A stretch of 35,889 nucleotides of DNA, taken from positions 1 through 35,889 of the forward strand of contig RBNJ01000234.1 of the NCBI GenBank assembly GCA_003990765.1, given 5' to 3'. This document shows positions 1-33,647 of the stretch, piece by piece (positions within the stretch are counted from its first letter, which is position 1; each line of letters starts with the position of its first letter). This DNA comes from Jimgerdemannia flammicorona (taxonomy: Eukaryota). The notes beneath the pieces were generated by a model that did not search any database, was not told the origin of the DNA, and saw only the letters and a list, made by a program, of their open reading frames with translations. A program made the position numbers and the translations under genes.

Positions 1-2677
1 GTTCTTGATTGTGGATATCCCTGAAGTCTGTAGCAAGTACTCCTTCATTCTGGTGCAGGATCTTGAGAAGTTGTTCCTCCAGAGGAAAGTTTTCTCCAAT
101 GGTATATGTGTGCTTGTTCTGGTCCTTTTCTTTCTTGTGTTCAAGTTTGGTAATCTTGGTGGCAGCATAGGCTCCTCTTCCAGTAGATCCAAAGCCTTGT
201 TCTCCTCTCTTGGTCTTGATAAGTTCAATGGCTTCTATGATCTTGGGTTTCTTGATTTCGTGGATCAGTATCTGGCCTATCCTGTCATGCTTCTTGACTT
301 CGAAGGGGGTGGTGTAGTTGTGATTTCTGACTATAAAGAAGATCTCACCAGTATAATCAGGGTCAATTACTCCTCCTTCAACTGAGATTTTACTTTTGGC
401 CAGACTGCTCCTGGTCTTGATAATTCCAGCATGGTTCTCTGGCAGCTTGACTCCAATTCCAGTGCCAAGTAGGGTGGTGGTCTGTGGTTCGAGGGTAGCA
501 TCTTGAATACTGGCAAGGTCCATTCCTATGGCTCCTTCAGTCTTGTATTCTGGGATCTTGGCTTCAGGGTGAAACTTCTTGATCTTGAGAGTGATGTCTG
601 ATTTTTGTTCCTCCTCATCGTCACTGTCAGCTTGAAGCTCTGGGGACTGGTCATCTTCTTCGGCTTTCCTTTTTGCTTTGGCGGCTTCTTGCTCATGTTT
701 CTGTTGGTGGATTTTCCTGACTTCACTGATACAGGACCAGCAGTCATTCAGGTGTTCAGAGCAGTACATCCTAGTACCATGGGGGCATCTTCCTTGAGAG
801 GCATAGCCATCGATGATCTTGTTGTACCACTGCTCATCTGTGAGCTTGGGTGTCTTGTTCTTGTTCTTGTTCACCGAGTGCATGAAGACCTCTGTGTCTT
901 CTTTATCTCCTTCCTCCATGTCTGGTAGAACTCCTTTGTGGACATTGATAGAGACTCATACCTTTCTCCCTCTGTAGTTGATCTGCATCTTCTGGGCATT
1001 GAGGTCAATGATGGCCTTGGCCTTGTGAAGCCATTGGTTGCCAATGAGGATGTCATAGTTGGTGGCGCTTGTAACAATCAGATCTACTGGGATGGTAGCT
1101 CCTCCTATCTTGATGGGGACTTCTCGGATTTTGCCAAGAGGGGTAGCTCATATACCATCTGCTGTGACATAGACCATCTTGGTGGACTCTTCAATGTCCC
1201 AACCTAGGCAGTCAATTGCCTTCTTGCTCATAAGGCATCCTCTAGCACCGGTATCAATGATGGCATCAAAGATACAATCTTTGATCTGGCAGGGGGTATA
1301 GGCTGATGTCTTGTGCTGGTCTTCGGATTCTTTGCCTGAGTTCTCGAATTCTTCCTGTGCATTGTGAGCTTCTACAATCTTGTACTCTTGATTCTTGGCA
1401 GTAGTTGCAAGTCCTACTCTCAACTGCTGTCTGAAGGTAGGGACTTCGGCTAGTTGTCCAAAAGTGGCATTGACCTTCTGTTCCTTGAGGTCCTTGTAGA
1501 TGTCATACTGGTGGATCTTGATCTTGTGCAGCTTCTGTTCCTTCTTACTTTCACTTTCTCCTGAGACTGGAGTAGTGTCTTCAATGATTTGGCAGGCAGC
1601 TTTGTCTAACTCTATGTCTTGATCAATCTCCTTGGGTTGGGTCTTGCTTTGAATAGTGATAGCTGGGGTCTTCTTTAGTCTTCCAACTGGCTTGCTGTTG
1701 CTCTTCTTGTCATAGGGCTTGGACTGGGTTCTGGTACCTTCAGTAGCAGGGTAGAATTCGAGCTCCTCATAATATTCTTCATCATCAGTGTCACCAATCT
1801 CCTCGATGACTACTGCATTGGTTTGTTCTCTGGTTCTACTAGCATTGCTTGGTTGAGCCTTGTGTCTTGTTTCGGTCATGCAATTCTTTGCATAGTGGCC
1901 TTCTTCTCCACATCTGAAACATGTAATATTGCATTCTTCTGTAGCGGCTGTAAATCTCTGCACTGGTCTCCTGTTGGCACTTCAGACCTCTCTAACAACA
2001 TCACCAAGGTGTGCAGTCATCTCAGCAAACTGCTTGGCGAGTTCTTCCACTGGGTCAGCTTTGGCTGTCTTGGGGGTAGGTGGGGTTGGTTGTCTGTTTA
2101 CCACTGTGGCAGGTAAGATACTAGTTGGCTTTGATGGCTCCATCTTGATGTCAGTTATTTTCTCCATTGAATGTTCGGCAGGGTGTCTGGCAGTCCAATA
2201 TCTCTGTGCAAAGACCACTTTCTGATCAAGGGTCAGTGTAGCTGGGGTAGATCGAATTGCTAGGGCAATTTCAGGGTGAACTCCTTTGAGGAAGGTTGAA
2301 TCCGCTATTTGTTCCTTGAGGCAGTCATCATAGCCAGCCAAGACAATCTAGTGACAGATTCAGGTATAGATTGAATTGGAATCTTCACTAAGTCCCTGGC
2401 AGATAGTATTGAGTTGATCCTTGAGAGCTTGCTTGATCTCTTTGGTATAATTTGTTGTTCTGAGGAAGACCTTTATGTTGGCAAGTTTGGCTGCACTAGC
2501 ATCAGCGATGGTGGCTGCATTGAACTTGTCTCTGGCAGGTCCTCTGAGGCTGACTGGTAGAAGGGCCAATTGAGCATCCACACCAAGGGCTCGTATGGCA
2601 GCGAATTGTTCAAAGTCTTCAATAAAGGTCAGGATTGACTCTTTAGTAGTATATCCATAGAATGTGGGGGGACGCAT
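1..2677 (-). pseudogene. Family A gag-pol polyprotein, copy 1 (single frame with in-frame stops)
   Basis: ORF pieces 2360-2677, 1982-2341 and 1148-1963 share one frame, which continues through PR, CPHGTRMYCSEHLNDCWSC (731-787) and dUTPase (~180-597, ending RGEQGFGSTG). The stops are TAG/TGA, as expected from C>T or G>A change. Confidence 0.9.
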
Positions 2678-2780
2678 TTCTATCTTGTCTTAAATTCTTG
2701 CAGGGGTGACTCTTGTAGTCAGGGTAGTTGTTGTGGGGGTTGTTCGTTTTTCAGCTTGAAAGTGAGGGATTTGTCTTGAA

Positions 2781-2800
2781 TCACCAGCCAATGGGCACCA
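2781..2800 (-). promoter_or_regulatory. Primer-binding-site-like sequence of family A (TGGTGCCCATTGGCTGGTGA)
   Basis: Starts with TGG 3 nt inside the LTR's terminal CA; the homolog at 22341-22360 has TGG>TAG. The tRNA primer was not identified. Confidence 0.65.
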
Positions 2801-2803
2801 AAT

Positions 2804-4376
2804 TGTCATGTAGTGGTTGCTGAGTCCTTCAAATATGCCAGATTCTCTTCAAGGTGTATCTCTTAGACTAACTCAAGTTTGTTATAAGCAAGTTCTTATT
2901 GGAGTACCTTCCCAAGGTCTTATAGTCCTCAAACTTCTTATCTTTAACTATCTTGTTATCTCTTAGATTGCTTGCAAGGAAGTGTGTAGGTGAACTTGAC
3001 TGACTTTATTTCAGAGAAAATAAGAGGGGTATTTATACAAAATATAATTCAATGGTTGCTAAGATATAAAGCTAATTATAAATTCCAATAACTAAAACTA
3101 CTAAGTTCCAGGGTCGGCACTGATGATTGTACAGGTTCAGGATGCTGATATTATCTAGTGTCACATCAAAATGCCAGTACTGGAACAATTTCACGTCACC
3201 TCAGAATACCGGTGCTGGCATTATCCAGTGTTATATGAGAATACCAGTGCTGGCATTATCCAGTGTAACAAAGAACTTAGAGCAGAAAGTTCAGGATCAT
3301 GGGGGCTTCATCATCATCATCATCACTGAAAGAGATGAGATCCACGAATTTGTTATGCAGGTCATACATTTCGCATACTTCAGGTGCTTCGGGTATGTTG
3401 CGCATCTCGCATATGTTGAAGTTGCATGAGATGATGTCATCGCCGATGATGTCATCACGTTCAGCTGTGGTGGAGAAATTGGGAACAAGATCTGGAGCTC
3501 TCTAGTCTATGAGGTTCTCTTCCACAAAATAAGGAACAAATATGGGGTCTTGGGGGGGTCTAACCCAGATGCTTGGGCCTTGGAATACTGAGATCAATCC
3601 TTGCAGGAATTGATCTGGGTTGTCCTGGAGGATAGGATGCCAGAAGTCTTCTACTTCTTCGCTGTTGAGGGTGATAGTGGACTGGGCTTCTGTAGCCACC
3701 CTGGCTTCTAGTGTATTGATATGGCAGGATGACAGGTCTCCAAAGTCTGAGACTCTCATATACTCCAAGTTGGGGATTGACCATGGTGCATGCCTGAAGA
3801 TCTGATGGATCTTCTTAGCTGTCTTTGTTTTGCATATATCCATGGGAGTGGTATCTTGTAGCTCTTGAGTGCTGGTCTGTGGGAACTCCCGGCAGAGGAG
3901 GTTTCCTATTTCATACTCCTGCCACATTTGGAGGCATTCAGTAGCAATAGTGATCCTTGTTTCCATCTCACGGCAGTAGAGGATAAAGTGATAGGGATCT
4001 GCAGTACCCAGATTGATACTAGGAGTCCTTCTTGAGCAGATCCCCATGACTCTTCTGATGTCTTGGAACATCCTTTCTTCAACCAAGGTATCTTGATGAT
4101 TCCTTGACCTTGAGGTTTGGTGGGCAGCAGGCATTTTGTTTGTGATAAGTCTTTGAGCTATTTTGGGATTAATGGTTCTTGTTGGTTGCTGCTACTGCAG
4201 TTCCTTGATCCTTCTTTTATATTCTTCAGGATGCTTGTACTGTGGTCACAATGACTCACAGTTGGTCATCATTACTCATCTCGTATGCCATATAATCTTC
4301 TTGTGCTCCGATCTGGTGGCTTGCAAGGAAAGGCTGTCTTTTGTACTGATGTCATCATTCTGGGGTCACCATTACA
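2804..4376 (-). repeat. Family A 5' LTR (1573 bp)
   Basis: TGTAATGGTGACC...ATGACA on the minus strand; homologous to 5557-7154, 7707-9342 and 22364-23935. Confidence 0.95.
3277..4134 (-). pseudogene. LTR-internal ORF (285 aa if TAG at 3502-3504 is read as Trp), function unknown
   Basis: MPAAHQ...EENLID*RAPD...DLISFSDDDDDEAPMILNFLL-TAA. The single stop corresponds to TGG in the copies at 6234-6653 and 8268-8690. Confidence 0.8.
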
Positions 4377-5556
4377 CTATATAAAGGTAGATAAAATAAA
4401 TATAAAGCCAAAGTAATTATCACTTGCTTTTAAAACTCTGATAACATTCCTTAGTACATTCTACTTACTTTTATCTATAGTCTCACTCTGTATTTCCTTG
4501 TTAGCAGCAACTGTAGAATCTATTTTGAATTTAATTAATTAACAATCCTCAGTCTTATGAAACAATTTACTTCAGCTAACTGAAAAAAGAATACATACTA
4601 TAGCAAACTCTAATATGTGCTGGATCATTATAAATATTGAGTTCTAATACATACAGACATCTAATATCAGCTCTTTCAAGACTAAACTGATTACTCTACA
4701 CTATATAGTAAATTTGTTCTATCATTATAAAGATGATCAGACCAATATAATCAGTTTATATAGCTTGAAAACAATACTTAGAGTTCTTTCACTTTTAGAT
4801 GTTTTGTCTATATATATAAGATAATTCTGAACAATAAGGTTCAGTATATGGGCCTAATAATGTATATAGTAGTTTTCTATACTAAAGGCTATATTTTTCT
4901 ATTGAAGGTTGGCTGCTAAATTTTGGAAAAACATTGAGTTATTTGTAGCATTATCTGTCATAATGATCAAAATCTATACTTGAAATTTTCAGTTGGCAAA
5001 TTTATATGAAAATAAATAACCATTAAAATCTGTTTTGTTTTAAGACTTCTCTCAAAATGCCAACCAGATAGTAAGTTCTCCCTTTTTATCTTGATTGTGA
5101 TTCCAAGCTCCTGGATATAACTAATAAAAACATCTATAATATTTTCTTCAGAATGAGGACCAGCAAGTTTGATGAAGTTAAGGGTAAGAGATTTAAGTTA
5201 CCAATTGAGATCAATTCAATGACTGGTAATTCCCAGAAATGAAATTATATTGAGGAATATCTATATATTGATTGGAAATAAAATTCTACCTGCTGAATTC
5301 TGTTTATTAAATGTGACATTAAATTTGTGAGCTCTTTTATATATATATATAATTCAGCTTACAATGGTCATAGTATTGCTTTTATTTATTTATTTTACCT
5401 AAAGTGTCTGGTGAAGATTATCATACTTCTTCCTATAGATCTCCAGGATATCTTTATGAATAGTATCAGTACTTAACAGATATAAATCATACTTGAGGAG
5501 GTCAAAGATGCTATGCAATTGATCACTCTTGATGGTTGTGAATGGTTGGTCTATAT
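4377..5556 (-). pseudogene. Decayed hAT-superfamily transposase, catalytic region (host element)
   Basis: Minus-strand translations DQPFTT..., FLGITSH*IDLNW*LKSLTLNFIKLAGPHS, IMTDNATNN, *AHILNLIVQ and LILDVCMY*NSIFIM match the hAT motifs (GITAHWID, TDNA, CxAH, DVxTRWNS). A probable intron lies at about 5303-5398. Confidence 0.8.
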
Positions 5557-5711
5557 TGTAATGGTGACTCCAGAATGATGACATCAGCACAGAAGACAGT
5601 CTTTTCTTACAAGCTATCAGATCGGAGCACAAGAAGATCATATGGCATATAAGATGAGCAACAATGACCAACTGTGAGTTATTGTGACTACAGTATAAGT
5701 ATCTTGAGGAA

Positions 5712-5719
5712 TATAAAAG
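5712..5719 (+). promoter_or_regulatory. Candidate TATA box (TATAAAAG) about 80 nt upstream of the LTR ORF
   Basis: Present at the equivalent position in all four LTRs. Confidence 0.4.
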
Positions 5720-5798
5720 AAGGATTAAGGAACTGCAGTAGCAGCAACCAACAAGACCCAACAATCCCAAAATAGCTCAAAGACTTACTATAAACGAA

Positions 5799-6653
5799 AT
5801 GCCTACTACTTACCAAACCTCAAGGTCAAGGAACCACCAAGGCACCTTGGTGGAAGAAAGGATGTTCCAAGACATCAGAAGAGCCATGAGGACCCACTCA
5901 AGAAGGACTCCTAGTGTCAACCTGGGTACTGATGACCCCTATCACTATATCCTCTACCACCATGAAATAGAAACAAGGATCACCATTGCTACCAAATGCC
6001 TCCAAATGTGGCAGGAGTACAAAATAGGAAACCTCTTCTACTAGAAGTTCCCACAGACCAGCACTTAAGAGCTACAAGATACCACTTCTATGGATATACG
6101 TGAAATAAGGATAGCTAAGAAGATCCATCAGATCTTCTGACATGCACCATGGTCAATCCCCAACTTAGAGTATGTTAGAGTCTCAGATTTCAGAGACCTA
6201 TCATCTCACCATATCAATGCACTAGAAGCCAGAGTGGCTATAGAAGCCCAGTCTACTATCACTCTCAATAATGATGAAGTAGAAGACTTCTGGCATCCTA
6301 TCCTCCAGGACAACCCAGACCAATTCCTGCAAGGGTTGATCTCAGTATTCCAAGGCCCAAGCATCCAGGTTAGACCTCTCCAAGACCCCACATTTGTTCC
6401 CTATTTTGTGGAAAAGAACCTCATAGACTGGAGAGCTCCAGATCTCCTTATTTCCGCCACCGCTAAATGTGATGACGTCATTGGCAATGACATTATCCCA
6501 CATGACATTGAAGTATATAAAATGTGCAACATTTGTGAGATGCACAACCTACACAATGACAACAATAATGATGAATTTGCAGACCTCATCTCCTTTGAAG
6601 ACATCCTGACCTCTGATAACAAAGCCCCCATGGTCCTGAACATTCTGCTTTAG
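5799..6653 (+). pseudogene. LTR-internal ORF copy (284 aa, 3 transition-type stops)
   Basis: ORFs 5799-6044 and 6234-6653 are in the same frame and end APMVLNILL-TAG. Confidence 0.78.
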
Positions 6654-6913
6654 GTCTCTTGGTTACACCGAATAATGTCAGTACCAGTATTTGATGGAAC
6701 ACTGAATAATGCCAGCCCTGGCATTTGATGTAACACTGAATAATACCAGCACTGGCATTCTAATGTAACACCAAATTATACCAGCATCCTGAACCTATAC
6801 AATTATCAGTGCTGACTCTGGAACTTAGCAGTTTTTCCTAATCTGGCATTTTATTTTAGTTATTGGAATTTATATTTAGCTTTATATCTTAGCAACCATT
6901 GAATTATATTTTG

Positions 6914-6946
6914 TATAAATACCCCTCTTATTTCCTCTGAAATAAA
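6914..6946 (+). promoter_or_regulatory. Candidate main LTR TATA (TATAAATA) followed by AATAAA
   Basis: TATAAATA at 6914-6921 and AATAAA at 6941-6946; the same layout occurs in the other LTRs and resembles a U3/R boundary. Confidence 0.45.
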
Positions 6947-7154
6947 GTCAGTTTCTCTCAGTGCAATATACAAACTTCCTTGCAAGCAATCTAAGAGATA
7001 ACAAGACAGTTTAAAGATAAGAAGTTTGAGGACTATAAGACCTTGGGAAGGCACTCCAATAAGAACTTGCTTATAACAAACTTGAGTTTGTCTAAGAGAT
7101 ACACCTTGAAGAGAATCTGGTGTATTTGAAGGACTCAGCGACCACTATGTGACA

Positions 7155-7706
7155 GTATATATAATCTGACAAATGAGTCAATTTCAAAATTCTGCTGAAG
7201 AATATAGTTAAATATTTTTAATTAAATAGGGTTATTGATATAGAAATAGTCAGACAATCAGATAAATGTACCCACTAAAGCTTGGATATCAATTTAATTT
7301 GTTTTCATATTCTTTTTAATTTTGTCAGAGTATTTGTCTTTTATATATCAATATATATTTGAAGTTGACCTACTAGGTATTTTGAACTTCTGGCTATATA
7401 GTATAAAAGGATTGATAGGAATAACATTATGTATATATCAAACAAAAACATCAGTTATATCATAAATACATCTTCTTTTTTTAATTTTTTACCTACAATA
7501 ATTACAAATAATATCATTTCCAATCTTAGTACAATGTTGTCAGATTTTGGAATAAGGATTGTATAGAAAGTGTGAAACTATCAAGAATGTTTGACTTGAA
7601 GCATCATCAGTACTATGAACTATTGAAGACTGATCTATTGATATATATATTTGCATATTTATATGTATATATGTTTATATATATATATATATATGTTTAT
7701 ATATAT
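7155..7706 (-). pseudogene. Decayed hAT transposase N-terminus (BED zinc finger) and AT microsatellite
   Basis: KI*QHCTKIGNDIICNYC, then after a probable intron STSNIY*YIKDKY (BED finger with His>Tyr transitions). The TA-rich repeat at ~7640-7706 continues at 23936-23991. Confidence 0.65.
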
Positions 7707-9342
7707 TGTCATATAGTGGTCACTGAGTCCTTCAAATATATCAGATTCTCTTCAAGGTATATCTCTTAGACTAACTTAAGTTTGTTATAAGCAAGTTCTT
7801 ATTAGAGTACCTTCTCAAGGTCTTATAGTCCTCAAACTTCTTATCTTTAAACTGTCTTATTATCTCTTGGATTGCTTGTAGGAAATTGTGTATAAGTGAA
7901 CTTGACTGACTTTATTTCAGAGGAAATAAGAAGAGTATTTATATAAAATATAATTCAATAGTTGCTAAGATATAAAGCTAAATATAAATTCCAATAACCA
8001 ATAAAATGCTGGAACACAGAAAACTGCCAAGTTCCAGGGTTGGCACAGATGGTTGTATAGGTTCAGGATGCTGGTATAATTTTGGTGATACAGGAAAATA
8101 GTGCTAGAATAATTCTGAGTCACAAGGTCAGAATGCCAGTGGAGGAACAGCTGTTATACAGAAAAAGAATACTGGAATAATTCTGAGTCACAAGGTCAGA
8201 ATGCTGGTGGAGGAATAGCTATTACATAGGAAAAGAATGCTGGCATAATTCAGTATAACTAAGGAACTTAGAGTAGAATGTTCAGGACCATGGGGGCTTC
8301 ATCCTCATCATCACTATCCTCAAAGGAGATGAGGTCTGCAAACATTTCAGTCTCATCATATAGATTATGTGTTTCACGTACTTTGTACATGTTGTGCAGG
8401 ATGATGTCATTGCCAATGATGTCATCATGTTTGGTGGCAGGGAAATTGGGGGCTCTCCAATCTATGAGGTTCTCTTCCACAAAATAAGGAACAAATGTAA
8501 GGTCTTGGGGAGATCTAACCTGGATGCTTGGGCCTTGGAATACTGAGATCAATCCTTGCAAGAATTTATCTGGGTTATCCTGGAGGATGGGATGCCAGAA
8601 GTCTTCTATTTTATCACTATTGAGGGTAATAGTGGACTGGGCTTCTGTAGTTACCCTGGCTTCTAGTGCATTGATACAGTGGGCTGACAAATCTCTGAAA
8701 TCTGAGACTCTAACATACTCTAAGTTGGAGATTGACCATAGTATATGCCTGAAGATCTGATGAATCTTCTTAGCTGTCCTTGCTTCTTATATATCCATGA
8801 GAGTGGCATCTTGTAACTCTTGGGGGCTGGCCTGTGGGAACTCCTGACAGAGAAGGTTTCTTATTTCATACTCCTGCCACATTTGGAGGCATTCAGTAGC
8901 AATAGTGATCCTTGTTTCCATTTCATAGTAGTAGAGGATAAAGTGATAAGGATCCATAGTACCCAGGTTAAGACTAGGAGTCCTTCTTGTACAGATTCTC
9001 ATGGCTCTTCTGATGTCTTGGAACATCTTTTCTTCAACTGAGGTACCTTGGTGGTTCCTTGACCTTGAGATTTAGCAAGCAGCAGGCATTTTGTTTGTGG
9101 TAAGTCTTTGAGCTATTTTGGAATTGATAGGTCTTGTTGAGTTGCTGCTACTGTGGTTCCTTGATCCTTCTTTTATATTTCTCAAGATGCCTGTACTGTG
9201 GTCACAATGACTCACAGTTGGTCATCATTACTCATCTCATAGCCTAAGTCATGCTGTATAATCTTCTTGTGTTCCAATCTGGTGACTTGTAAGGAAAGAC
9301 TGTCTCTTGTGCTGATTTCATCATTCTGAGGTCACTATTACA
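7707..9342 (-). repeat. Family A 3' LTR of copy 2 (1636 bp)
   Basis: TG...CA ends; preceded on the minus strand by the PPT AGGAGGAAGA; carries a 68-bp tandem duplication at 8102-8237. Confidence 0.95.
8268..9089 (-). pseudogene. LTR-internal ORF copy (273 aa, with stops)
   Basis: ORFs 8787-9026 and 8268-8690 are in frame with the ATG at 9089 and end APMVLNILL-TAA. Confidence 0.75.
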
Positions 9343-9669: not shown

Positions 9670-9957
9670 CTAGAATCTTGAAGCAGTTATCACATTTTGC
9701 TTCTCTTGTATAGGTTTATGGTACTTCTTAAGTCTGTTCCTATATACCATGGTAGACAGTATGGTCCCTGAGATTTTTCTAAGCCAGAAGATAGTTCTCT
9801 TGATATCTTGCATATAGAAGAGTTCTTCCTATTTGAGCTCTAGTTTTTACAACCATGAGACTTCTACTATATTTCGATATAGTAGGACCTTTTCTCCAAT
9901 TTGGATGGGTTCTAGAGTCTTGTGATTCTTTTCCACATTCTTTCTTGTCAGCACTTG
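9670..9957 (-). pseudogene. Family A integrase C-terminus (GPF/Y-like), separated from the rest of pol by element B
   Basis: The frame continues across the ACTTG TSD: ...IQIGEKVLLY...KLELK*EELFY...RNRLKKY. No chromodomain was seen. Confidence 0.75.
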
Positions 9958-10422
9958 TATAACAGTTCTAGTTTCTTTAAGAGGAAGTGGCTAAATATAG
10001 AAGTTCTAGTTGACTTAAAGTAGCTTAAAGAGATACTTAAAGGTTCAAGTGTTCTTGAAGGATTTCTGGGAGAAAATATTCTGAGCTTTATTGAGGCAGA
10101 GAACAAGGATATTAATATATGATCTGAAAGAAAGATCTGGAAGAATCTTGGAAAGAAAGAGAAATGCCAAGAAATAGGTTCTCAGCAAAGCTGACTGATA
10201 CTATTCTACAATGTTCTGAAAGGTTCCATGACTAGCTGAGACAAGATACTTGGTACCAAGGAAAGACAAGAATGTTCTAGTGATGTCTGGGCACTGAGAG
10301 AAGGCTTCTAAGCAAGTAGAAGGTGCCAGAACATAGTAGAATGTTCAAGAAATAACAAGAAAAGACTGACTAAAAGATGCAAAAAATGTACTAAGACTAA
10401 ATATGACTGTGAAATTGTTACA
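9958..10422 (-). repeat. Family B 3' LTR (465 bp)
   Basis: Direct repeat of 15594-16057; one terminal TG is mutated to TA. Confidence 0.95.
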
Positions 10423-10782
10423 TCCCTCTCTCCTTAAGAACCAATGTCCTTGTTGAGTTCTTAGGTAATACTAGGCTAGATATACTTAACCAAAATTTCT
10501 CAAACTTGAATCGGTGCATTGGTGGGGATTGGCCATCCTCATATAGAGCAGAGGGCCTATTACCAGACTAACCAACTGGGAGGGGTTCAAACCCAGCTAG
10601 TAGCTTCATTATAGTGGACTTCTTGTTCATTAAATGTTCTGCTGATTCTGGGGTCCCAAAGTAAACTTCTGATGCATAAGGCACTGGTCATTACCATAAG
10701 TCATCAACAATTCAAGAAAGTCACTACAGGGATTGAGTAATATATTTTGCCTTGAAGTCTTAAACTAGATTGAGAGTTCTTG

Positions 10783-13700
10783 AGGTTCCCAGGTAGCATC
10801 ATATTCAGAATAATCCATCCACTTGACTAGGTATTCAGGACAGTGGTAGTGAATTTGTTTGTCAAGAATTTTCTCAGCTTCATACTTGATATGATCTTCA
10901 ATAATTACAGAGATAGAAGGCTTAGAAATTCGACCAGGGTAGGGTGGTGACTGGTTTCAGGTCTTGAGGTGTAACATATGAAAGACTGGGTGTACTCTCA
11001 TGGTTTCAGATAGCTTGAGATAGTAGGAGGATGCAGAGACTTGTTCAGTGATCTTGAAAGATCCAATATACTTGGGTTGGAATTTGTTTGAAGGGTGGTT
11101 GACTTGAGATTGTATCTTGAGGTTCTTGGTAGACAGTAGAACTTGATCTCCAACAGTGTAAGTGACATCATGGCATTTCTTGTCAGCATATTTGGCTTGA
11201 TGCTGTTGAGCCTTCTGAAGGTTCATGGTAGCAATCTTGAGTAGTTCATCCATTTTATCTGTAAGATTCTTGGCCATTGGGACTTGTATTTGACTGGTTT
11301 TCTTGAAAGAGAATAGACTTGCAGGGGTCTTGGGATCTTGACTGTAGAGTAACCAGAAAGGGGAAAGACCAGTAGATGATTAGACAGTATTGTTATATAC
11401 AAACTCTGCATAAGTCAGATAGATGTCCCAATCATCTTGCTCATAAGAACATAGTTTCTAAGCATTTTTTCTAGAGTTCTGTTCATGTACTTGGTTTGTC
11501 CATCAGTTTGTGGGTGAAAGGCAGTAGATATAGCCAATTGAGTTCCCAGAGTCTTGAAGAGAGTTTGCCAGAAGTGGCTGGTGAACTTGGGGTCACAATC
11601 ACTAACAATTACTCATAGTAGACTATAGTGACAGAATATAGACTTGAAGAAGATTCTTGCAATCTTGGGCACAGTAGCATTGGTAGTGGTTGGTTCAGTA
11701 ACCATAGTCTTGGTCAGGCAGTCAATGAATATGATGATAGCATCAGCACCAGATTGAGTTCATGGTAGTTGAGTTACAAAGTCCATGGTGACTTGCTCAA
11801 ACTTCTTAGTAGGAATTGGCAGTGGTTGTAGCAAACTGGTGGGTGCTTGGTTGGTAGACTTATTGCACTGATATAGATCACAGCTGGCAACATAGTTCTT
11901 GATTTCCTTGACAATGTTTGGCTAATAGTAGTGGCATTGAATGTTCTTGATGGTCTTCTCAATTCCCAGGTGACCAGCAAGAGGGGAGTCATAGTGTTCT
12001 TGCAAAATCTTTTAGTGTAAGTTCATGTTTTCAAGTAGGTAGACTTGGTCTTGATGATATATCAGATTGTTCTTGACAGTATATGTATCCTTGAGTTCAT
12101 TTGAGAAAACTCTAGTGGCAACTGTGTCTTCTTTGTAAGCTTACTTGATTTGGTCTAGGAATTCTGATGCCAAGGTGACTTGCATGATTGTGGTGAGGCC
12201 TGAGTACCTTAATAAGGCATCTGGTACTACAAGTGTCTTGCTGGGCTTGTAGATGATCATCAGATTATAGATTTGAAGCTTGAGGCTCCACTTGGCTTGT
12301 AGATGTGACAGAGTAGGTTAGGTGTTGATATACTTGAGAGATTGATGATCAGTAATAACATCAAACTCAATACCTTCTAGATAGCATTGCCAGTGGTCTA
12401 GTGCATGTATTATTGCTAGTAGTTCCTTCTCATAAGTAGCTAGCTTTTATTCAGCTGGGGCCAGCTTGCAGAACTTGAAAGCAATAGAGCAATGTCCTTT
12501 GCCATCATCTTGTAACAGGACTGCTCTAATGGCAAATTTGATATATCAGTGGTGACTATAAATTTTAGGCCTTGATCTGCATTACACAGGACTGGAGCAT
12601 GGATCAGGCAGTTCTTGAGTTCTTGAAAGGCTTGTTGACAGAAGAGATCCCAGATGTAGGGTACATAGTGGTCTGAGTGTAGGGCCTTCCTCATGAGGTT
12701 AGTCAGTGGCTTAGCAATGCCAGAGAAGTTTCTGATAAAGTGGCAGTAATAGCCAGCTAGACCAAGGAAGGATCAGAGTTCTGTGAGGTTCGACAGAATA
12801 GGCCATTCTTCAATTACTTCTATCTTGTGTGGGTCTACTTGAATTCTTTGTACAGAGATAATGTGGCCAAAGTATTCAACTTGTTTCTTGAAGAATTTAT
12901 ACTTCTTGAGCTTGGCATAAAGCTTGTGTTTTTGCAGGATCTCCAGGACTATTCAAATATGTTTGAGATATTCTTCTTTAGTTGTACTAAAGATCAGAAT
13001 ATCATCAAGATATACCAACAGGAAAATAAATAGTTGGTCCTTGAATATCTCATTCATCAGAGTCTGAAATGTGGCAGATGCATTGGTGAGACCAAATGCT
13101 AAGACCAGGAATTCATAGAGTCCAAAGGGGGTCATGAATGCAGTCTTGGGAATGTCTTCTGGCTTTATTCAAATCTAGTGGTATCCTGATATGAGATCTA
13201 ACTTGGTGAAGTACTTGGCATTCTTGAGAGCATCAAAGATTTGATCAATCAAGAGTAATGGATAGTAGTTCTTGACAGTGAGTTTGTTGAGTGCATGATA
13301 GTCTATGCACATTTACAGGGTATCATCCTTCTTGACGAATAAGACTGGTGAGCCATAAGGAGATTTACTTGGCTGAATGGCTCCTCATGCAAGTAGTTTC
13401 TCTAATTCCTTCTTAATTGCTTCAATTTTGAGTGGTGACATGTGGTACATATATTTCTTGAGTGGTACAGCTTCTGGGGTCAGTTCAATTTCATGATCAA
13501 CTTCTCATGTAGATGGTAGACCAGGTAGCTTGTCTGGAAAGACATCCTTGAATTCCTCTAGCAATAACTTGATACTTTTATTGACTGATAGTCTCTTATC
13601 TTGTTTCTTGGAGTAGATTATTACAATAAAGATATGCATTGCCTTTTTGAGTGCTTTTTTATACTATATAGCTGACAGTGTTGCAATCTGGGTCTTGCTC

Positions 13701-15503
13701 GTGGTCTTGTCTGTCTTGATCATAATGTTGGCTCTATCTTAAAGTAGGGTGACTTCATTCTTGCACCAATCAATGTCTGGGTTATGTTTCATAAGCCAGG
13801 GTTTTTCTAAGATCAGATCATGATCTCCTAGTGGTGCAACCTCAAAGTCTACTCATTCCCAATATTTCTGGATCTTGATGGGCAGTTTGGCAGCAATTGA
13901 CTCAATGGAGTGCAGAGTACCATCTGTAGTGACTATACTATTGTTCTTGGGTACAGGCTTAGTGAGGATCTTAAGGTTTTTGATGAGATTATGATTGATG
14001 AAGTTCTCTGCAGCTCCACTGTCTATGAGTACTTGAATGTCTTTTCCTTTGACTAGGCCTTTAAAAATGAGTATAGCTTGAGCTCAATTTTCACTAAGAC
14101 TTGCTGCTTAATCAGTATTGCCAAAACTCTTTTGATCTTATTTAGTTTCAGGGAGTTTTTGGACTTCTGTAATCTTGAGTTGACTGGCTTTTTCTAGGAT
14201 CATTTGCATGACTCAGTCTCCTTCTTTAACTGTATAGTCTTGATCCTTCTGGTTGACAAGTATGTAAGACTTGAACTTGTCCTCAAAAGTCTGGGTCAAT
14301 GATACTAGCGCCTACATCTAAATGATGTTTGACACTGAGTCCTGATTGCAGTACAATTCTAGCATAATGTCCTTCAGAACATTGAACTGCAATTCCAGTA
14401 GGCACCAGAGTGCAGCCCTTGGCTGGAATAGTGACTTGTTTGACTGAGTGTAGGTCAAGACCAATGACTCCTTCTGTTTGATATTGAGAGACCTGGGTCT
14501 TCAAATGAAGCTTCTTGATCTTGAGCTCAAGTTGACTGGTAGTAGGATTAACAGATGTATCCTTGGACAACATGGTGACTGGTCTTGAGAGTTTGCTAGT
14601 CTTCCTAGGACATTTGATTGCAATGTGTTCTGTTTTGTAACAGAAGAAACAAGCTCCAGATTTCTTCAGGTGGTCCTTTTCTTCAGGGGTGAGCTTGGTG
14701 TTCTTTTTGTTCATGGTGTCTAAGTCCATTGGTACTGGACTAACTGTCCTTGGTTGGTTTCTGTAGTGGTTCTTGAAGTGGTTCTTTTTGTGGCATTCTG
14801 GTTCAAAGCAGTTACCAAAGGTGATGATATCAAATCTATCAGCAATTCTCATGGCTTCATCAAGAGTTTTGGTCTCTTCTAGCTCAACCTTAACTCATGT
14901 GTTTCCCTTCAGACCTCAGACATAGCAGTCTATCTTTTCATCCTTGGATACTGCTAGTAGCTTAAGTAGGATTGATAAGAATTGTATATTATAGCTTTGC
15001 ACAGACTTGAGTTACTTGACATTTGCTAGCTTGTCCTTGGCTAGCTTGGTGGCATTAGCAGACTTGAACTGCTTGTAAAGGGCTCTTTTGAAGGCTTCCC
15101 AATCTCTGATTCATGCATATGAGTATACAGATATAACCATGATATAATTATGCCACCAGATGGCTGCATTTTCTTGGAGAAGTGTGGCAGCAAATTGGAC
15201 TTGCATGTCATCTTCCATTCTTGTAAGCTCAAAGTATTGATCCAATTGGAAGATCCATACATCTGTAGATAGTCCTCCTCAATAGCTATTGAAGGTATCT
15301 GGCTTAAGTAGCTTGAAACTGACTGGTGCTACAGCAGGATGTAATATACCTATAGTTTGTATTTTCTGCTGTTCTAGTTGTACTTGAAGTTCTTGAATTT
15401 GGTGGGCCATAGCATTGATCATATCTTCTATGTTGAGCTGTGATCCTCCTGCTTCTTCTGTAGCAGAGGGGTCTGGCTGGTAAACTGACTCTTCACAGCT
15501 CAT
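10783..15503 (-). pseudogene. Family B gag-dUTPase-PR-RT-RH-IN-chromodomain polyprotein (many stops; 3' end approximate)
   Basis: CFFCYKTEHIAIKC knuckle; dUTPase at ~14112-14530; VLIDSGAAENFI at ~14000-14033; YLDD at 13001-13012; PKYIGSFKI; chromodomain YEAEKILDK...EYLVKWMDYSEYDATWEP at 10783-10884. Confidence 0.9.
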
Positions 15504-15581
15504 TTCAGGTTCATGTGACTAGTTGTGACTGGTTTCCGAATTCATGTGAGGTTTCTTAATAAGGCAAGGTATAATGACACT

Positions 15582-15591
15582 GCTGCTACCA
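15582..15591 (-). promoter_or_regulatory. PBS of family B (TGGTAGCAGC), probably initiator tRNA-Met
   Basis: Located 2 nt inside the 5' LTR; TGGTAGC is complementary to the 3' end of known initiator tRNA-Met. Confidence 0.6.
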
Positions 15592-15593
15592 AG

Positions 15594-16057
15594 TGTAACA
15601 GTTCTAGTTTCTTTAAGAGGAAGTGGCTAAATCTGGAAGTTCTAGTTGGCCTAAAGTAGCTCAAAGAAATACTTAAAAATTCAAGTGTTCTTGAAGAATT
15701 TCTGGGAGAAAATATTCTGAGCTTTATTCAGGCAGAGAACAAGGATATTTATATATGATCTGAAAGAAAGATCCAGAAGGATCTTGGAAAGAAAGAGAAA
15801 TGCCAAGAAATAGGTTCTTGGCAAAGCTGACTAATACTATTCTATAATGTTCCAAAGGTTCCATGACTAGCTGAGACAAGATACTTGGTGCCAAGGAAAG
15901 ACAAGAATGTTCTAGTGGTGTCTGGGCACTGAGAGAAGGTTTCTAAGCAAGTAGAAAGTACCGGAACATAGTAGAATATTCAAGAAATGACAAGAAAAGA
16001 CTGACTAAAAGACATAAAAAATGTACTAAGACTAAATATGACTGTAAAATTGTTACA
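15594..16057 (-). repeat. Family B 5' LTR (464 bp)
   Basis: TGTAACA...TGTTACA inverted ends. Confidence 0.95.
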
Positions 16058-19000: not shown

Positions 19001-20309
19001 TTTTTGCTTCAGCAGCTTCTTGCTCATGCTTCTGTTGGTAGATTTTCCTGACTTCACTGATACAGGACCAGCAGTTATTCAGGTGTTCAGAACAGTACAT
19101 TCTAGTACTATGGGGGCATCTTCCTTGAGGGGCATAGCCATCAATGATCTTGTTGTACCACTGCTCATCTGTGAGCTTGGGTGTCTTGTTCTTGTTCTTG
19201 TTTACTGAGTGCATGAAGACTTCTGTGTCCTCTTCATCTTCTTCCTCTATGTTTAGTAGAACATTTATAGAGACTCATACCTTTCTTCCTCTATAGTTGA
19301 TCTGTATCTTCTGGGCATTGAGGTCAATGATGGCCTTGGCCTTGTGAAGCCATTGGTTGCCAATGAGGATGTCATAGTTAGTGGTACTTATAATAATCAC
19401 ATCTACTGGGATGATAGCTTCTCCTATCTTGATGGAGACTTCTCAGATTTTGCCAAGGGGGGTAGCTTGTATACCATCTGCTGTGATATAGACCATCTTG
19501 GTAGACTCTTCAATGTCCCAGTCTAGGCAGTCAATTGCCTTCTTGCTCATGAGGCATTCTCTAGCACTGGTATCAATGATGGTATCAAAGATACAATCTT
19601 TGATCTAATATGGGGTGTAGGCTGATATCTTGTACTGGTCTTCAGATTCTTCACCTGAGTCTTCTTGATCATCTTCTTGTACATTGTGAGCTTCTACAAT
19701 ATTGTACTCTTGATTCTTGGCAGTAGTTGTAAGTCTTACTCTTAACTGCTGTCTGAAGGCAGGGACTTTGGCTAGCTGTCCAAAAGTAGCATTGACTTTC
19801 TGTTCCTTGAGGTTCTTATAGATATCATACTGGTGGATCTTGGTCTTGCACAGCTTCTGTTCCTTCTTACTTTCACTTTCTCCTGAGACTGGAGTAGTGC
19901 CTTCAATGATTTAGTAGGCAGCTTCATCTAACTCCATGTCTTGATCAATCTCCTTGGGTTGAGTCTTGCTTTAGATAGTGATAGCTGGGGTCTTCTTTAG
20001 TCTTCCAACTGGCTTGCTGTTGCTCTTCTTGTCATAGAGCTTGGACTGAGTTCTGGTATCTTCAGTAGTAGAGTAGAATTCGAGCTCCTTGTAGTATTCT
20101 TCATCATCAGTATCACCAATCTCCTCGATGACTACTACATTGGTTTGTTCTCTGGTTCTGCTAGCATTGCTTGGTTGGGCTTTGCATCTTATTTCAGTTA
20201 TACAACTCTTTGCATAGTGGCCTTCTTCTCTACATCTGAATAATGTGATATTGCATTCTTCTATAGCAGCTGCAAATCTCTGTACTGGTCTCCTGTTGGC
20301 ACTTCAGAC

Positions 20310-20361
<52 letters not shown>

Positions 20362-22237
20362 GAACTCATGTCCTACAGATTTTTATTGGAAGAGAACCTA
20401 GACTATATAGGCCAAAACCCTCCCCCACCACCCACCAAGTACTGCCACCCCATTAACCTAGGCTAACTATTGTCCAGCAGCTCGACTATGCCAGGCGCAG
20501 TAGGGCCGATGTAGGCCTGCACCTCATTCTGCGCACCATGCTCTCCCTACCACCAGGGGAAACCCAACCATATGCCAATGACTGAAAGCGCATGCCTGAG
20601 AACCCAATGTATGTACAAGGCCATGCCTGAGCTAAATAGAATAGCCCCTGTCACTCCAAAGAGAATGACAGACAAAGAGAAAACCCTCATCAAAGTACAA
20701 CACAGTGGGTAGGGCCTGGTTCTCCCAGTTGAGGTGAGTAAAGGACTTACACGTGAGGCGGGAGGAAACCCCCAATACCCCACTACTCAAGCCTGTGGGC
20801 CTCGATTACGTTGCCATGTCAGCTCCTGGTTCCAGTTGAATGCAGCCAAGACACCTGAAATGGGTAGCCTCAGGCCTCCCGACCCCCCCTGACGACTGGG
20901 GCCCAACCCCACTGACCGCCAAAAGAAGCCAATAGTGACACCTACTACCTAACTGTGCCACACCAATCAAAAGACCCCACCGAAGTAGTACCTGCCCCAG
21001 CCCCGATGACAACCCCCAGCCTGGCACCCTACTGGTCCACCGTAATCACCCTTCCTCCTAACTGTGATGGCCATCTCCCCTCCCATCCCGACAACACCTG
21101 AAAAACAGTCACCTATGCCAGAACCAAGCTCACCGGGAAGCTCGCCAAAGCCAGAGGGCTCCACCACAGATACTGAGGACCTGCAGGTAACCTACACTGA
21201 GCACTTGACGCCCAAGGTCAGCTGACTCCCTACATAGCCCAAGACACACCGAGACAACTCCTTGTTGGTGATGGCAAAAGGAAGAAGGCACCGCACCAAA
21301 ACGGGTACACCCCAGATGCAGCCGGAGGCACCAGAATCTGCAAAAAAGTAGAGGAAGCACTGATCTGACACCAATAAAGGGGCAACTTATCACTATTGCC
21401 CTCCTCCCACCATGCCCCTGCAGGTACAGCAAACCAACCCAAGGTAGAGGGGGTAATAATAGGGGAAAGAGGACTCAGAAGATTGCCTACCAAACCTTGT
21501 GACCGGTAAGGTAGTGGAGAAAGGGACATCCCCACCACACTTCAGACTTCTCTAACAACATCACCAAGGTATGCAGTTATCTCAGCAAACTGCTTGGCAA
21601 GTTCCTCCACTGGGTCAACTTTAATTGCCTTGGGAGTAGGTGGGGATAGTTGTCTATTTACAACTGTAGTAGGTATGATACTTGTTGGCTTTGATGGCTC
21701 TATCTTGATGCTAGTTATTTTCTCCATTGAGTATTTGGCAGGGTATCTGGTAGTCTAATATCTCTGTGTAAAGACCACTTTCTGATCAAGGATCAGTGCA
21801 GCTAGGATAGACTGGATTGCTAGGGCAATTTCAGGGTGAACTTCTTTAAGAAAAGTTGAATCTGCTATTTGTTCCTTGAGGATATCATCATAGCTAGCCA
21901 AGACAATCTGGTGGCAGATTTGGGTATAGAATGAGTTGGGATCTTTACTGAGTCCCTGGCAGATAGTATTGAGTTGATCCTTGAGAGCTTGCTTAATCTC
22001 TTCAGTATAGTATGTTGTTCTGAGAAAGGCCTTCATGTTGGTAAGTTTGGCTGTACCAGTATAAGCAATAGTGGCTGCATTGAACTTATCTCTGGCAGAT
22101 CCTCTGAGGCTGACTAGTAGAAGGACCAATTGTGCATCCATATGAAGAGTTCATATGGCAGCAAATTGTTCAAAGTCTTTAATAAAAGTCAGGATTGACT
22201 CTTCAGTAGTATATCTATAGAATGTGGAGGAATGCAT
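16058..22237 (-). pseudogene. Family A gag-pol, copy 2 (interrupted by the non-LTR insertion)
   Basis: gag from 22237; PR; Cys/His motif at 19062-19118; dUTPase at ~18510-18927; RT YIDD at 17818-17829; RNase H TDASTIGLGAVLAQ; integrase DIIGPLP...VDLFTK. Confidence 0.9.
20316..21537 (-). mobile_element. Poly(A)-tailed non-LTR retroposed insertion (5'-truncated LINE 3' end or a passenger RNA)
   Basis: T-run at 20315-20358; minus-strand AATAAA at 20382-20387; 16-bp TSD CACTTCAGACTTCTCT at 20300-20315 and 21538-21553; copy 1 shows the empty site at ~1978-1993. Confidence 0.9.
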
Positions 22238-22363: not shown

Positions 22364-23935
22364 TGTCATGTAGCAGTCACTGAGTCCTTCAAATATATCA
22401 GATTCTCTTCAAGGTATATCTCTTAGACTAACTCAAGTTTGTTATAAGCAAGTTCTTATTAGAGTGCCTTCCTAAGGTCTTATAGTACTCAAACTTCTTA
22501 TCTTTAAACTGTCTTGTTATTTCTTGAATTGCTCACAAGAAATTATATATAAGTGAACTTGACTGACTTTATTTCAGAGGAAATAAAAAGGGTATTTATA
22601 TAAAATATAATTCAATGGTTGCTAAGATATAAAGCTAAATATAAATTCCAATAATCAATAAAATACTGGAATACAGAAAACTGCCAAGTTCCAGAGTTGG
22701 CACAGATGGTTGCACAGGTTCAGGATGCTGGTATAATTTCAGTGATACAGGAAAATGGTGCCGGAATAATTCTGAGTCACAAGGTCAGAATACCAGTGGA
22801 GGAACAGCTGTTATACAGGAAAAGGATACTGGTACATATAATTCAGTATAACTAAGGGACTTATAGCAGAATATTCAGGACCATGGGGGCTTCATTCTCA
22901 TCATTACTGTCCTCAAAGGAGATGAGGTCTACAAACATTTCAGTCTCATCACATAGGTTGTGCATTTTGCATACTTTGTGTATATTGTGCAGGATGACAT
23001 TATCACCAATAATGTCATCATATTCAGTGGTAGGGAAATTGAGGGCTCTCTAATCTATGAGATTCTCTTCCACAAAATAAGGAACAAATATGGGATCTTG
23101 AAGAGATTTAATCTGAATGCTTGGGCCTTAGAATACTGAGATCAATCCTTACAGGAATTGATCTGAATTGTTCTGGAGGATGGGATGTCAGAAGTCTTCT
23201 ACTTCATCACTATTGAGAGTGATAGTAGACTGGGCTTCTATAGCCACTCTGGCTTCTAGTGCATTGATATGGTAGGCTGACAGATCTCTGAAATCTGAGA
23301 CTCTAATATACTCTAAGTTGGGGATCAACCATGGTGCATGTCTGAAGATCTGATGAATCTTCTTAGCTGTTCTTACTTCTTATATATCTATAAGAGTAGT
23401 ATTTTGTAACTCTTGAGGGCTGGTCTATGAGAACTCCTGGCAGAGAAGATATCCTATTTCATACTCCTACTATATTTGGAGGCATTCAGTAGCAATAGTG
23501 ATCCTTGTTTCCATTTTATAGTAGTAGAGGATAAAGTAATAAGAATTCATAGTACTCAGGTTGAGACTAGGAGTCCTTCTTGTATAGGTCCTCATGGCTC
23601 TTCTGATGTCTTGGAATATCCTTTCTTCAACTGAAGTGCCTTGGTAGTTTCTTGACCTTGAGGTTTGGCAAGCAGCAGGCATTTCATTTGTAATAAGTCT
23701 TTGAGCTATTTTGGGATTGGTGGGTCTTATTGAGTTGCTACTACTGCAGTTACTTGATCCTTCTTTTATATTTCTCAAGATATCTATACTGTAGTCACAA
23801 TAACTCACAGTTTGTTATCATTATTCATCTCATAGCCTGAGTCATGCCATATGATCTTCTTGTGTTCTAATCTGGTGGCTTGCAAGGAAAGGCTGTCTCT
23901 TGTACTGATGTCATCATTCTGAGATCACTATTACA
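22364..23935 (-). repeat. Family A 5' LTR of copy 2 (1572 bp)
   Basis: TG...CA ends with an adjacent decayed PBS. Confidence 0.95.
22861..23682 (-). pseudogene. LTR-internal ORF copy (273 aa, with stops)
   Basis: MPAACQTSRSRNYQ...APMVLNILL-TAA; 822 nt, same length as the copy at 8268-9089. Confidence 0.72.
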
Positions 23936-24400
23936 GTATATATATTTATATATATATGTTTATATATATATATATTTATATATATATATATAGACACATC
24001 CAGTATATGAGTCATGTGGAGGATTTGGATTAGAGGATTCAAATTGAAGGATTCAGATTGAATAATTCAGATTGAATAATTTAGATTAAATGATTTAGAT
24101 TGAATAATTTAGATTTAGTAATTTAAATTAAGTAATTCAGATTGAGTGATTCAAATTGAGTAGTTTGGATTGAGTGGTTCAGATTAAGTGATTCAGATTG
24201 AGTAATTTAGATTGAGTAATTCAGATTGAGTGATTTGGATGAAGTGGTTCAGATGGAGTGATTTAGATAGGGTAATTTGGATAGAGTAATTTGGATTAAT
24301 CTGAGTTGATTTAGATTGTTTTGGATTTGAGATTTGGGTCAAACTGTTATATAATGAATCAAATCCAGATTTGATTCAAATCAACTCATTCAGAGTACTA
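23936..24400 (-). mobile_element. Probable 5' terminus of the host hAT transposon
   Basis: Continues the microsatellite at 7640-7706; carries a subterminal repeat array; the minus strand begins TAGTACTCTGAATGAGTTGATTTG at 24400, resembling a deaminated TAG-starting hAT TIR. The partner TIR is not in the window. Confidence 0.55.
24018..24297. repeat. About 20 copies of a 14-bp tandem repeat, inferred ancestor GAGTGRTTCGGATT
   Basis: Units such as GAGTGATTCAGATT and GAGTAATTTGGATT; the core varies TTCAG/TTTGG/TTTAG/TTCAA. Confidence 0.9.
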
Positions 24401-25329: not shown

Positions 25330-27730
<2,401 letters not shown>

Positions 27731-28281
27731 ACATTACAATATATTTATAAAATTAAAATAAATTATAATATTTATAATTATAGCTATAGTATAAATATTT
27801 CAATTTAATTTAAAATTTATTTTGTATTAATATAATAAATAATTTAATTTAATTCTAATATAAATTAATATTCATAATATATTTACTACTTTTAATTAAT
27901 TTATTTCTTGTTCAAACTTACCATTATAAAATATAATGATATCGATCAATTTGGCAGTCATATTCAAAGGTTTCTGTGGCTGAATGGCGTAGCTTGTCAA
28001 TATCTATCGCTTGACACCAACAATTCCCCATCATCCCATCTTGTTGTAACAAATATATCAAGTTATTAAATGCCACAAAGGAAAATAAAGATCCACGATA
28101 AGCTATCTAGCGACGATAGTTTCTATGGCAAGCAATCCGTACAGCGTACGGGGGTATTACATGACCACTCCGGTATCGAATTAACCATGATGGGATAAGT
28201 ACAAACTCAAACTTCTCTCTTAATTTACATTGCAGTCTCCATTCCTCCAACCCATTCTCCAAACCATCGAACCTTAAACCC

Positions 28282-33607: not shown

Positions 33608-33647
33608 CTAACGTAAAAGGATTTTGCGCTGCTTTCCGAGATGTGGT

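Follow-up and report, generated by a model that had tools for sequence, protein, structure and literature searches.

Evidence for a protein-coding gene within the long terminal repeats of a Ty3/Gypsy retrotransposon of Jimgerdemannia flammicorona

A stretch of 35,889 nucleotides (nt) from Jimgerdemannia flammicorona (assembly GCA_003990765.1, contig RBNJ01000234.1, positions 1 to 35,889 of the forward strand), here called the window, contains four copies of the LTR (long terminal repeat) of a Ty3/Gypsy retrotransposon, family A, and each of these repeats holds one open reading frame (ORF) in the same sense as gag-pol. The explanation that accounts best for the frame, with a probability of roughly 0.7, is that a complete gene of approximately 270–340 codons resides in the U3 part of the family A LTR, probably with its own promoter, and that the copies in the window are relics of it. 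We describe the frame and the repeats that carry it, assess the traces of past selection in comparison with relatives outside the window, weigh the alternatives, and compare family A with other retroelements that have acquired additional genes.

The open frame within the family A repeats

A BLAST comparison of positions 2601–4600 with the window recovered three more copies besides that at 2804–4376, giving four LTRs of 1.57–1.64 kb, the borders of which were set by a four-way alignment that included the flanks. The copies, their frames and the adjoining primer-binding site (PBS) are as follows.

2804..4376, minus strand: LTR copy c1, 1573 nt, a 5′ LTR; starts TGTAATGG, ends CATGACA; a PBS-like sequence and gag come next
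2788..2800, minus strand: PBS-like sequence TGGTGCCCATTGG, 3 nt past the end of c1; gag ATG at 2677
4134..3277, minus strand: LTR-borne ORF of c1, 858 nt, 285 codons and a stop; a single internal TAG falls at its codon 211, which is 212 in alignment numbering
5557..7154, plus strand: LTR copy c2, 1598 nt, probably a solo LTR; three internal stops in its ORF
5799..6653, plus strand: LTR-borne ORF of c2, 855 nt
7707..9342, minus strand: LTR copy c3, 1636 nt, a 3′ LTR with a polypurine tract directly before it; two internal stops in its ORF
9089..8268, minus strand: LTR-borne ORF of c3, 822 nt
22364..23935, minus strand: LTR copy c4, 1572 nt, a 5′ LTR with PBS and gag next; eight internal stops in its ORF
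23682..22861, minus strand: LTR-borne ORF of c4, 822 nt

In all four copies the frame runs from ATGCC (MPA or MPT at the protein level) to APM(I/V)LN(F/I)LL and a stop codon, with the boundaries and lengths that an initial annotation of this DNA, made from the letters alone, had given. It begins 242–253 nt past the start of the LTR and stops approximately 475–560 nt before its end, and hence lies wholly within the LTR in 5′, 3′ and, probably, solo copies. None of the four is undamaged: 14 internal stops occupy 12 codon positions, of which ten are private to a single copy, and 11 of the 14 stops are one transition away from a sense codon of another copy, so that the annotation was right to call them mostly transition-type and copy-specific. 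The shared positions are codon 102 (TAA in c3 and c4) and codon 212 (TAG in c1 and c4), while a TGA at codon 115 of c2 requires a transversion. All four window copies are inactivated relics that have been hit by CpG and transition hypermutation. The observed/expected ratio of CpG is 0.02–0.23 in all retroelement copies, compared to 1.03 in the host genes at 28000–35889, with TpG and CpA in excess, and the most frequent class of copy-private change is C-to-T at CpA (78 of 248 available sites). This pattern points to methylation-linked deamination, perhaps a process like repeat-induced point mutation, aimed at repeats.

Family A is an autonomous Ty3/Gypsy LTR retrotransposon with a dUTPase between protease (PR) and reverse transcriptase (RT), and its repeats are true LTRs. 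Their termini are of the TG..CA type, with TGTAAT(G/A)G at the start and (A/G)TGACA at the end of each copy; c4 is followed, likewise after 3 nt, by a diverged PBS, TAGTGTCCATTGG, homologous element-internal sequence comes after the PBS of both c1 and c4, and a polypurine run, AGGAGGAAGA, stands directly before c3. The element that begins with c1 extends as gag-PR-dUTPase to the left edge of the window, with Pfam matches to zf-CCHC, aspartyl protease and dUTPase at 1–1981 (minus strand). The longer family A element, also on the minus strand, matches zf-CCHC, aspartyl protease, dUTPase, RVT_1 and RT_RNaseH_2. According to sections of two papers (PMC2864245, PMC6431247), the order gag-PR-dUTPase-RT is known in fungal elements and also in rotifers and planarians. 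The Pfam integrase SH3 domain was found only in family B, a second dUTPase-bearing Ty3/Gypsy element of approximately 6.1 kb (9957–16057) that is nested in family A pol and has LTRs of 466 nt, 93% identical to each other. Only some 614 nt separate family B from the family A 3′ LTR, and this family A element seems to lack most of its integrase.

Two of the repeats, c3 and c4, have subfamily indels in common and lie in similar TA-rich surroundings. They probably represent the 5′ and 3′ LTRs of a single element, and 167 transitions and 8 transversions (102 and 3 within the frame, 65 and 5 outside it) separate them. Neither flank of c2 shows a PBS or element-internal sequence, and this copy is probably a solo LTR. 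The target-site flanks are (TA)n-like (ATATAC for c4 against ATATAT for c3, and TATAT offset by one base for c2) and are ambiguous in such TA-rich sequence. A microsatellite-like array of (TA)n and TATATATGTTTATATATATATG at 7636–7715 adjoins the end of c3, and the same type of sequence lies beyond the start of c4, as would be expected of a single insertion into a TA-rich tract. The longer element also carries an additional 1.2 kb or so in gag (20316–21537) relative to the other copy. This insert begins with a long T run, equivalent to poly(A) on the other strand, and has the same 16 nt, CACTTCAGACTTCTCT, on both sides; it resembles a retroposed sequence with a poly(A) tail, either a non-LTR element or a processed copy, that duplicated 16 bp of its target. 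Two frames at 21130–21541 gave no Pfam match.

Past selection on the frame and its relatives

The initial annotation had proposed that the frame is a selected gene, and three lines of evidence bear this out: indels that respect the frame, an intact and diverged homologue with a low ratio of nonsynonymous to synonymous substitution (dN/dS), and remote protein relatives. In the four-copy alignment the gap runs within the ORF measure 6, 15, 24, 9, 6, 6 and 3 nt, all seven being multiples of three, whereas outside the ORF this holds for 5 of the 16 gap runs of the LTR (Fisher p=0.0046). Length variation of the acidic tail among copies is therefore a matter of in-frame indels, and the annotation's observation that total lengths remain multiples of three despite a variable C-terminus is upheld by the individual gaps.

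Metagenome contigs were scanned with degenerate DNA patterns and tblastn, a procedure independent of gene calling, and two loci emerged from 184 pattern matches. One of these, L001, is a 1345-nt contig with an intact ORF of 323 codons and approximately 55% protein identity; the other, L002, on a 42-kb contig, was a mere 15-residue chance match and was discarded. Maximum likelihood (ML) estimates of dN/dS between the four window copies and L001 are 0.20–0.27 in frame, at dS of 1.35–1.89. When three L001 alignments were shifted by one or two bases as a control, four of the six estimates were 1.45–2.70 and the other two gave no usable value, with dS around 9–10. A codon bootstrap of the LWL85 estimate against L001 gave 0.40 (0.27–0.58), below 1 in 300 of 300 replicates, and the N-terminus and core alone gave 0.26 by the same method. 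Since the window copies carry neutral decay, all these values against L001 are upper bounds.

Further relatives were obtained at the protein level. A word-based search returned seven among 58 candidates, at 55–89% identity, including P0003, a full-length intact protein of 271 residues (75% identity), and P0006, with 247 residues (55%). A profile search of 1.84 billion representatives found five proteins and a profile word search twelve. P0009, P0010 (342 amino acids), P0011, P0012 (325 amino acids) and P0013 stand at 28–48% identity and have the same architecture; the N-terminal motif MP..R..QT(S/A) occurs in P0009, P0010, P0012 and P0013, and the MP start is common to these four, P0003 and the window copies. 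P0013 differs from P0012 by many changes of R to W, C or H, the same decay of CGN codons as in the window. Two contig sets, X1 and X2, whose molecule type is unknown, hold many LTR variants at identities of at least 85%. P0006 also gave a weak tblastn match to the family B LTRs (E=0.67), which was rejected, there being no frame at the site. The ORF protein family is real, old and rare in databases. Taken together, the in-frame indels, the intact L001 with its dN/dS and the distant relatives support the view that the LTR frame was a genuine protein-coding gene under purifying selection in the past.

Position in the repeat, predicted product and alternative readings

Conserved signals stand on both sides of the frame, and their positions in c1 are as follows.

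4214..4221, minus strand: TATA-1, TATAAAAG, candidate promoter of the LTR gene, 79 nt 5′ of the c1 ATG
3137..3270, minus strand: tandem array, period approximately 34 nt, with palindromic CCAG(T/C)ACTGG, enhancer-like, between the ORF stop and TATA-2
3029..3037, minus strand: TATA-2, TATAAATAC, putative genomic RNA promoter at which U3 would end, downstream of the ORF
3004..3010, minus strand: AATAAAG poly(A) signal, putative R/U5 boundary region, 27 nt past the start of TATA-2 and followed by approximately 200 nt of U5

These are the two TATA motifs and the AATAAA of the initial annotation, and they recur in all four copies. Upstream, TATAAAAG lies 79–80 nt before the ATG in each window copy, and L001 has the version GAATATAAAAG at 57 nt; the stretch from this motif to the start codon is free of ATG in four of the five sequences (c4 has one), and an A occupies position −3. 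The conserved TATA, the short leader and this A suggest that the gene has a promoter of its own and uses the poly(A) signal of the LTR. Downstream, approximately 240 nt 3′ of the ORF stop, TATAAATA is followed 27 nt on by AATAAA in every copy. L001 and the 5′ LTR of family B contain the same module with the same spacing; in L001, it comes after approximately 180 nt 3′ of the stop that cannot be aligned and contain a different repeat, as GTATAAATACCCCTC with AATAAA shortly after. Its distance from the LTR end is approximately 130–200 nt, being 130 nt in the family B 5′ LTR, which has only 466 nt and lacks the ORF. Because that LTR is so short, the module there should be the genomic promoter and poly(A) unit, and by homology it would have the same role in family A. 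We therefore favour a position of the ORF in U3, with a likely layout of approximately 1,370 nt of U3, a very short R and approximately 200 nt of U5. The giant U3 of the initial annotation thus holds as regards an ORF inside the LTR and a downstream module shared with family B and L001, while U3 itself is favoured from motifs. Between the frame and the module, the tandem array repeats every 34 nt in c2 and every 68 nt in c3, and it contains the palindrome CCAGTACTGG together with near-copies; its copy number differs among LTR copies, and the large length differences among them map to it.

If the gene does lie in U3, its propagation would follow from the life cycle of the element. Genomic RNA would start just past the downstream TATAAATA and be polyadenylated just past the adjacent AATAAA, so that the ORF would travel in the 3′ untranslated part of that RNA, and reverse transcription would copy it into both LTRs of each new insertion, from where it would stay behind in solo LTRs. 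The copying of U3 into both LTRs is the established mechanism of LTR formation. With TATAAAAG, 57–80 nt upstream of the ATG, as the gene's own promoter and the LTR AATAAA as terminator, any LTR, solo copies included, could be a self-contained unit yielding an mRNA of approximately 1.2 kb. The product might then regulate transcription of the element by acting, in the manner of retroviral transactivators, on the array that separates the ORF from the genomic promoter.

In the protein, which is soluble-looking overall, a short basic N-terminus leads into a conserved core of approximately 170 residues, predicted to be helical, and a fast-evolving acidic-hydrophobic tail. AlphaFold gave a predicted local distance difference test (pLDDT) of 51.6 for the whole protein (11 sequences); for the core (196 residues of L001, 13 sequences) the pLDDT was 69.9 and the predicted TM score 0.63, with nine helices followed by a small hairpin. 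Among five divergent members the first 45 residues have a net charge of +1 to +8, and the tail past the core one of −14 to −24, with 24–34% FILMVW, in all five. A predicted-helical core with an acidic tail, as the initial annotation described it, agrees with these figures. The tail retains the short motifs DD(I/V)I and DLI(S/N/T)F, and it closes in a conserved (D/E)-rich P..LNF motif in those members whose sequence extends to the C-terminus, P0012 excepted. The annotation had also recommended AlphaFold and Foldseek, and here the outcome was negative: Foldseek returned nothing at E<=0.001 for the whole-protein model and, for the core model, a best E of 0.94, which is background level, as is the best Z of 4.8 (a photosystem subunit) from VIA-align on the core. 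The ESM Atlas offered nothing usable (best feature score 0.83, TM of 0.33 or below), and no DNA-binding fold rose above background in the fold searches of the core. No Pfam family matched the window protein (E up to 10) or five relatives (E up to 1), the sole match of a PDB sequence profile was a GNAT acetyltransferase at E=0.18, and hhalign against the N-terminus of the element's gag gave a probability of 0.1%.

The composition of the tail fits acidic activation domains and equally other adaptor-binding tails. The DNA-binding activator of the initial annotation agrees with the composition and is otherwise speculative. By analogy, the product could be a trans-acting regulator of the element's own transcription that acts on the palindrome-containing array, a role that we prefer among the candidates although it is more likely wrong than right. 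An anti-silencing factor is an attractive if speculative alternative in a host that deaminates the CpGs of the element so thoroughly, and an export or packaging factor for the genomic RNA is another candidate, equally a matter of speculation. The most far-reaching proposal, that the LTR has turned into a self-contained RNA polymerase II (Pol II) gene, complete with promoter, 5′ untranslated region, an ORF of approximately 300 codons, enhancer repeats and a shared terminator, and encoding an element-specific array-binding transactivator or anti-silencing factor, we consider distinctly doubtful.

Three other explanations of the frame must be weighed against a gene in U3. The same signals might be read as a long R, in which TATAAAAG is the sole promoter and drives the genomic RNA, the ORF is the first cistron within a 1.2-kb R that is repeated at the 3′ end, and the mRNA for the protein consists of transcripts that end at the poly(A) signal of the 5′ LTR. 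Conservation of TATAAAAG in all four copies and L001 suits this arrangement, as does the largely ATG-free leader, and the transcript start of family A is placed by motifs. However, the family B LTR, which lacks the ORF, has the TATAAATA-AATAAA module equally far from its end, and there the module is necessarily the genomic promoter and terminator. An R of 1.2 kb with the start of gag more than 1.5 kb from the cap, behind an ORF of 285 codons, would be highly unusual by general knowledge; we regard a long R as unlikely. The frame could also be a passenger, taken up by the LTR from a whole or partial cellular gene; it would be of no benefit to the element, and its conservation would reflect the past of its donor. 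Gene capture by LTR elements is known (passages of PMC7264820), and the protein resembles neither gag nor any Pfam retroelement family, but the ORF has kept its place between the same two LTR signals at a synonymous divergence above 1 and a dN/dS near 0.25, and its database relatives are all on contigs of LTR size or slightly larger. No longer or fused form of the protein, such as a cellular gene might have, was found, which is weak evidence, and no relative was found in prokaryote genome contigs or viral contigs; a passenger is accordingly rather improbable. That there was never a gene at all, only a chance or compositional open frame in non-coding LTR, might be argued from the stops in every window copy, the lack of a known domain and the low confidence of the whole-length ESM and AlphaFold models. 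It is scarcely credible in view of the seven in-frame indels, the intact 323 codons of L001, a dN/dS far below that of the out-of-frame controls and relatives at approximately 30% identity with conservative substitutions.

Several observations weigh against a selected gene in U3, or limit what can be claimed for it. Intact copies number none of four in the window, and since the TAA at codon 102 is common to c3 and c4, their element may have been inserted with the gene already dead, which would make the gene dispensable in cis. Within the window, ML dN/dS is 0.51–0.63 and so not below that of c3 and c4 (0.63), a pair whose divergence is presumed neutral, since both LTRs probably belong to one element. 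As the value for this control matches that of the other pairs, dN/dS between window subfamilies, which the initial annotation had hoped would be informative, cannot show selection and was rejected as evidence; codon-position skew was rejected likewise, the c3/c4 control being similarly skewed. Transition and CpG decay distorts the within-window estimate. Beyond the window, the family is tiny in databases (the five proteins and twelve proteins of the two profile searches), the relatives there are all on short contigs of 0.6–4.8 kb (4.8 kb for P0010), those called as proteins were ascertained as open frames, and an LTR context is seen for the window copies and, in part, L001 only. The putative U3/R/U5 borders and the gene's candidate promoter are placed by motif conservation, and, with no match in Pfam, PDB sequences or folds, the proposed function is without homology support.

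Elsewhere in the window, AT-rich tracts of 19–27% GC surround the insertions (24000–28000, 4377–5556 and 7155–7706). A dUTPase relic at 26222–26524 (Pfam E=3e-9) indicates that the tract at 24000–28000 holds an older element decayed almost beyond recognition, and positions 19300–19663 match 27033–27389 at 66% identity. Among the host genes, an HMG-CoA synthase gene (28320–29898, minus strand) is divergent from an adjacent polyprenyl (farnesyl-type) synthetase gene (31527–32153, plus strand), the two being neighbours from the isoprenoid pathway, and a patatin-like phospholipase gene lies at 34051–35299. A gathering-threshold Rfam scan of the whole window gave no match.

Comparison with known systems

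Accessory genes distinguish 'complex' from simple retroviruses. Among LTR retrotransposons, all the accessory ORFs in the literature that we examined lie between the LTRs, and no protein ORF resident in an LTR was found in full-text literature (supplements, figures and Repbase being outside the search), in agreement with the initial annotation, which knew of no U3 ORF in fungal Ty3/Gypsy elements. Neither Pfam nor the literature furnished a match to an accessory gene already described. The elements with the same gag-PR-dUTPase-RT order as families A and B are PosPlaTy3-5 of Postia, elements of Phanerochaete and Tmt1 of Tuber; they differ in that no LTR ORF is described for them in the sections consulted (PMC2864245, PMC6431247), although a figure legend in the former refers to an 'add. 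ORF' of unknown function whose position is not stated in the portion of text at hand. The phrases 'LTR ORF' in a paper on Talaromyces and 'LTRs encode' in one on Blumeria proved, in the passages concerned, to denote polyprotein ORFs and not ORFs inside LTRs, and extracts of the paper on the Podospora element crapaud report variable 5′ halves of the LTR and describe no ORF in them.

The additional ORFs (aORFs) of plant elements, such as Ogre ORF1, Grande gene23, RIRE2 and Retand, resemble the family A ORF in being extra, conserved frames without database homologues. They are conserved within lineages and of unknown function, some have their own promoter and some products are nuclear, according to passages of a review (PMC7264820). 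These frames are internal, separating either the 5′ LTR from gag or pol from the 3′ LTR, and often antisense; none of the phrases in those passages places an ORF in, within or inside the LTR. By contrast, the family A ORF lies inside the LTR borders in all four copies, including a probable solo LTR. An independently transcribed, gene-like unit that is duplicated with the LTR does exist in the terminal-repeat retrotransposons in miniature Cassandra, Helenus and Ajax (part of PMC10886601). However, these units are small-RNA sequences of the RNA polymerase III type (5S, tRNA) in non-autonomous elements shorter than approximately 1.3 kb, whereas family A would have a Pol II-type protein gene in the 1.6-kb LTRs of an autonomous element.

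A selected gene inside an LTR would alter how such repeats are regarded, since a solo LTR would be a potentially expressed gene copy and more than a promoter relic, and since annotation pipelines mask LTRs as non-coding, such a gene would be hidden from view. With a host that deaminates the CpGs of the element almost completely, family A would offer a tractable system for the study of retrotransposon self-regulation or of resistance to host methylation. Were the LTR indeed a self-contained regulator, the regulator gene would be dispersed with each 5′, 3′ and solo LTR, its dosage would scale with LTR number, and a regulatory circuit of the 'complex' retroviral kind would exist in a non-infectious retrotransposon. 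Foamy viruses provide a parallel for this. Their Tas and Bet proteins depend on an internal promoter, and the bel ORFs reach into U3. As is proposed for family A, there is an accessory gene at the 3′ end, a second promoter and an acidic activation region, and the foamy virus transactivators act on repeats in their own U3, an action that in family A is hypothetical. Unlike the family A frame, the foamy virus genes are mostly internal and merely overlap U3, and neither sequence nor fold similarity links them to the family A protein.

The closest analogue of the family A gene, though not a homologue, is the sag gene of mouse mammary tumour virus (MMTV). Both are complete protein ORFs within the LTR, that of sag in its U3 and that of family A probably so, and hence are present in both LTRs of each provirus, and sag is expressed apart from gag-pol, as the family A gene is proposed to be (parts of PMC2118998, and general knowledge). 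The carriers and products are quite different. MMTV, which has env, is an infectious retrovirus of vertebrates, and its Sag product, a type II membrane glycoprotein, exerts its action on the T cells of the host; family A is a Ty3/Gypsy retrotransposon, and its predicted protein is soluble-looking, acidic and helical, with no Pfam match. An LTR-borne accessory gene is thus known from MMTV, and what is new here is a Ty3/Gypsy retrotransposon as its carrier, which would constitute an independent parallel to sag in the evolution of genes borne by LTRs.

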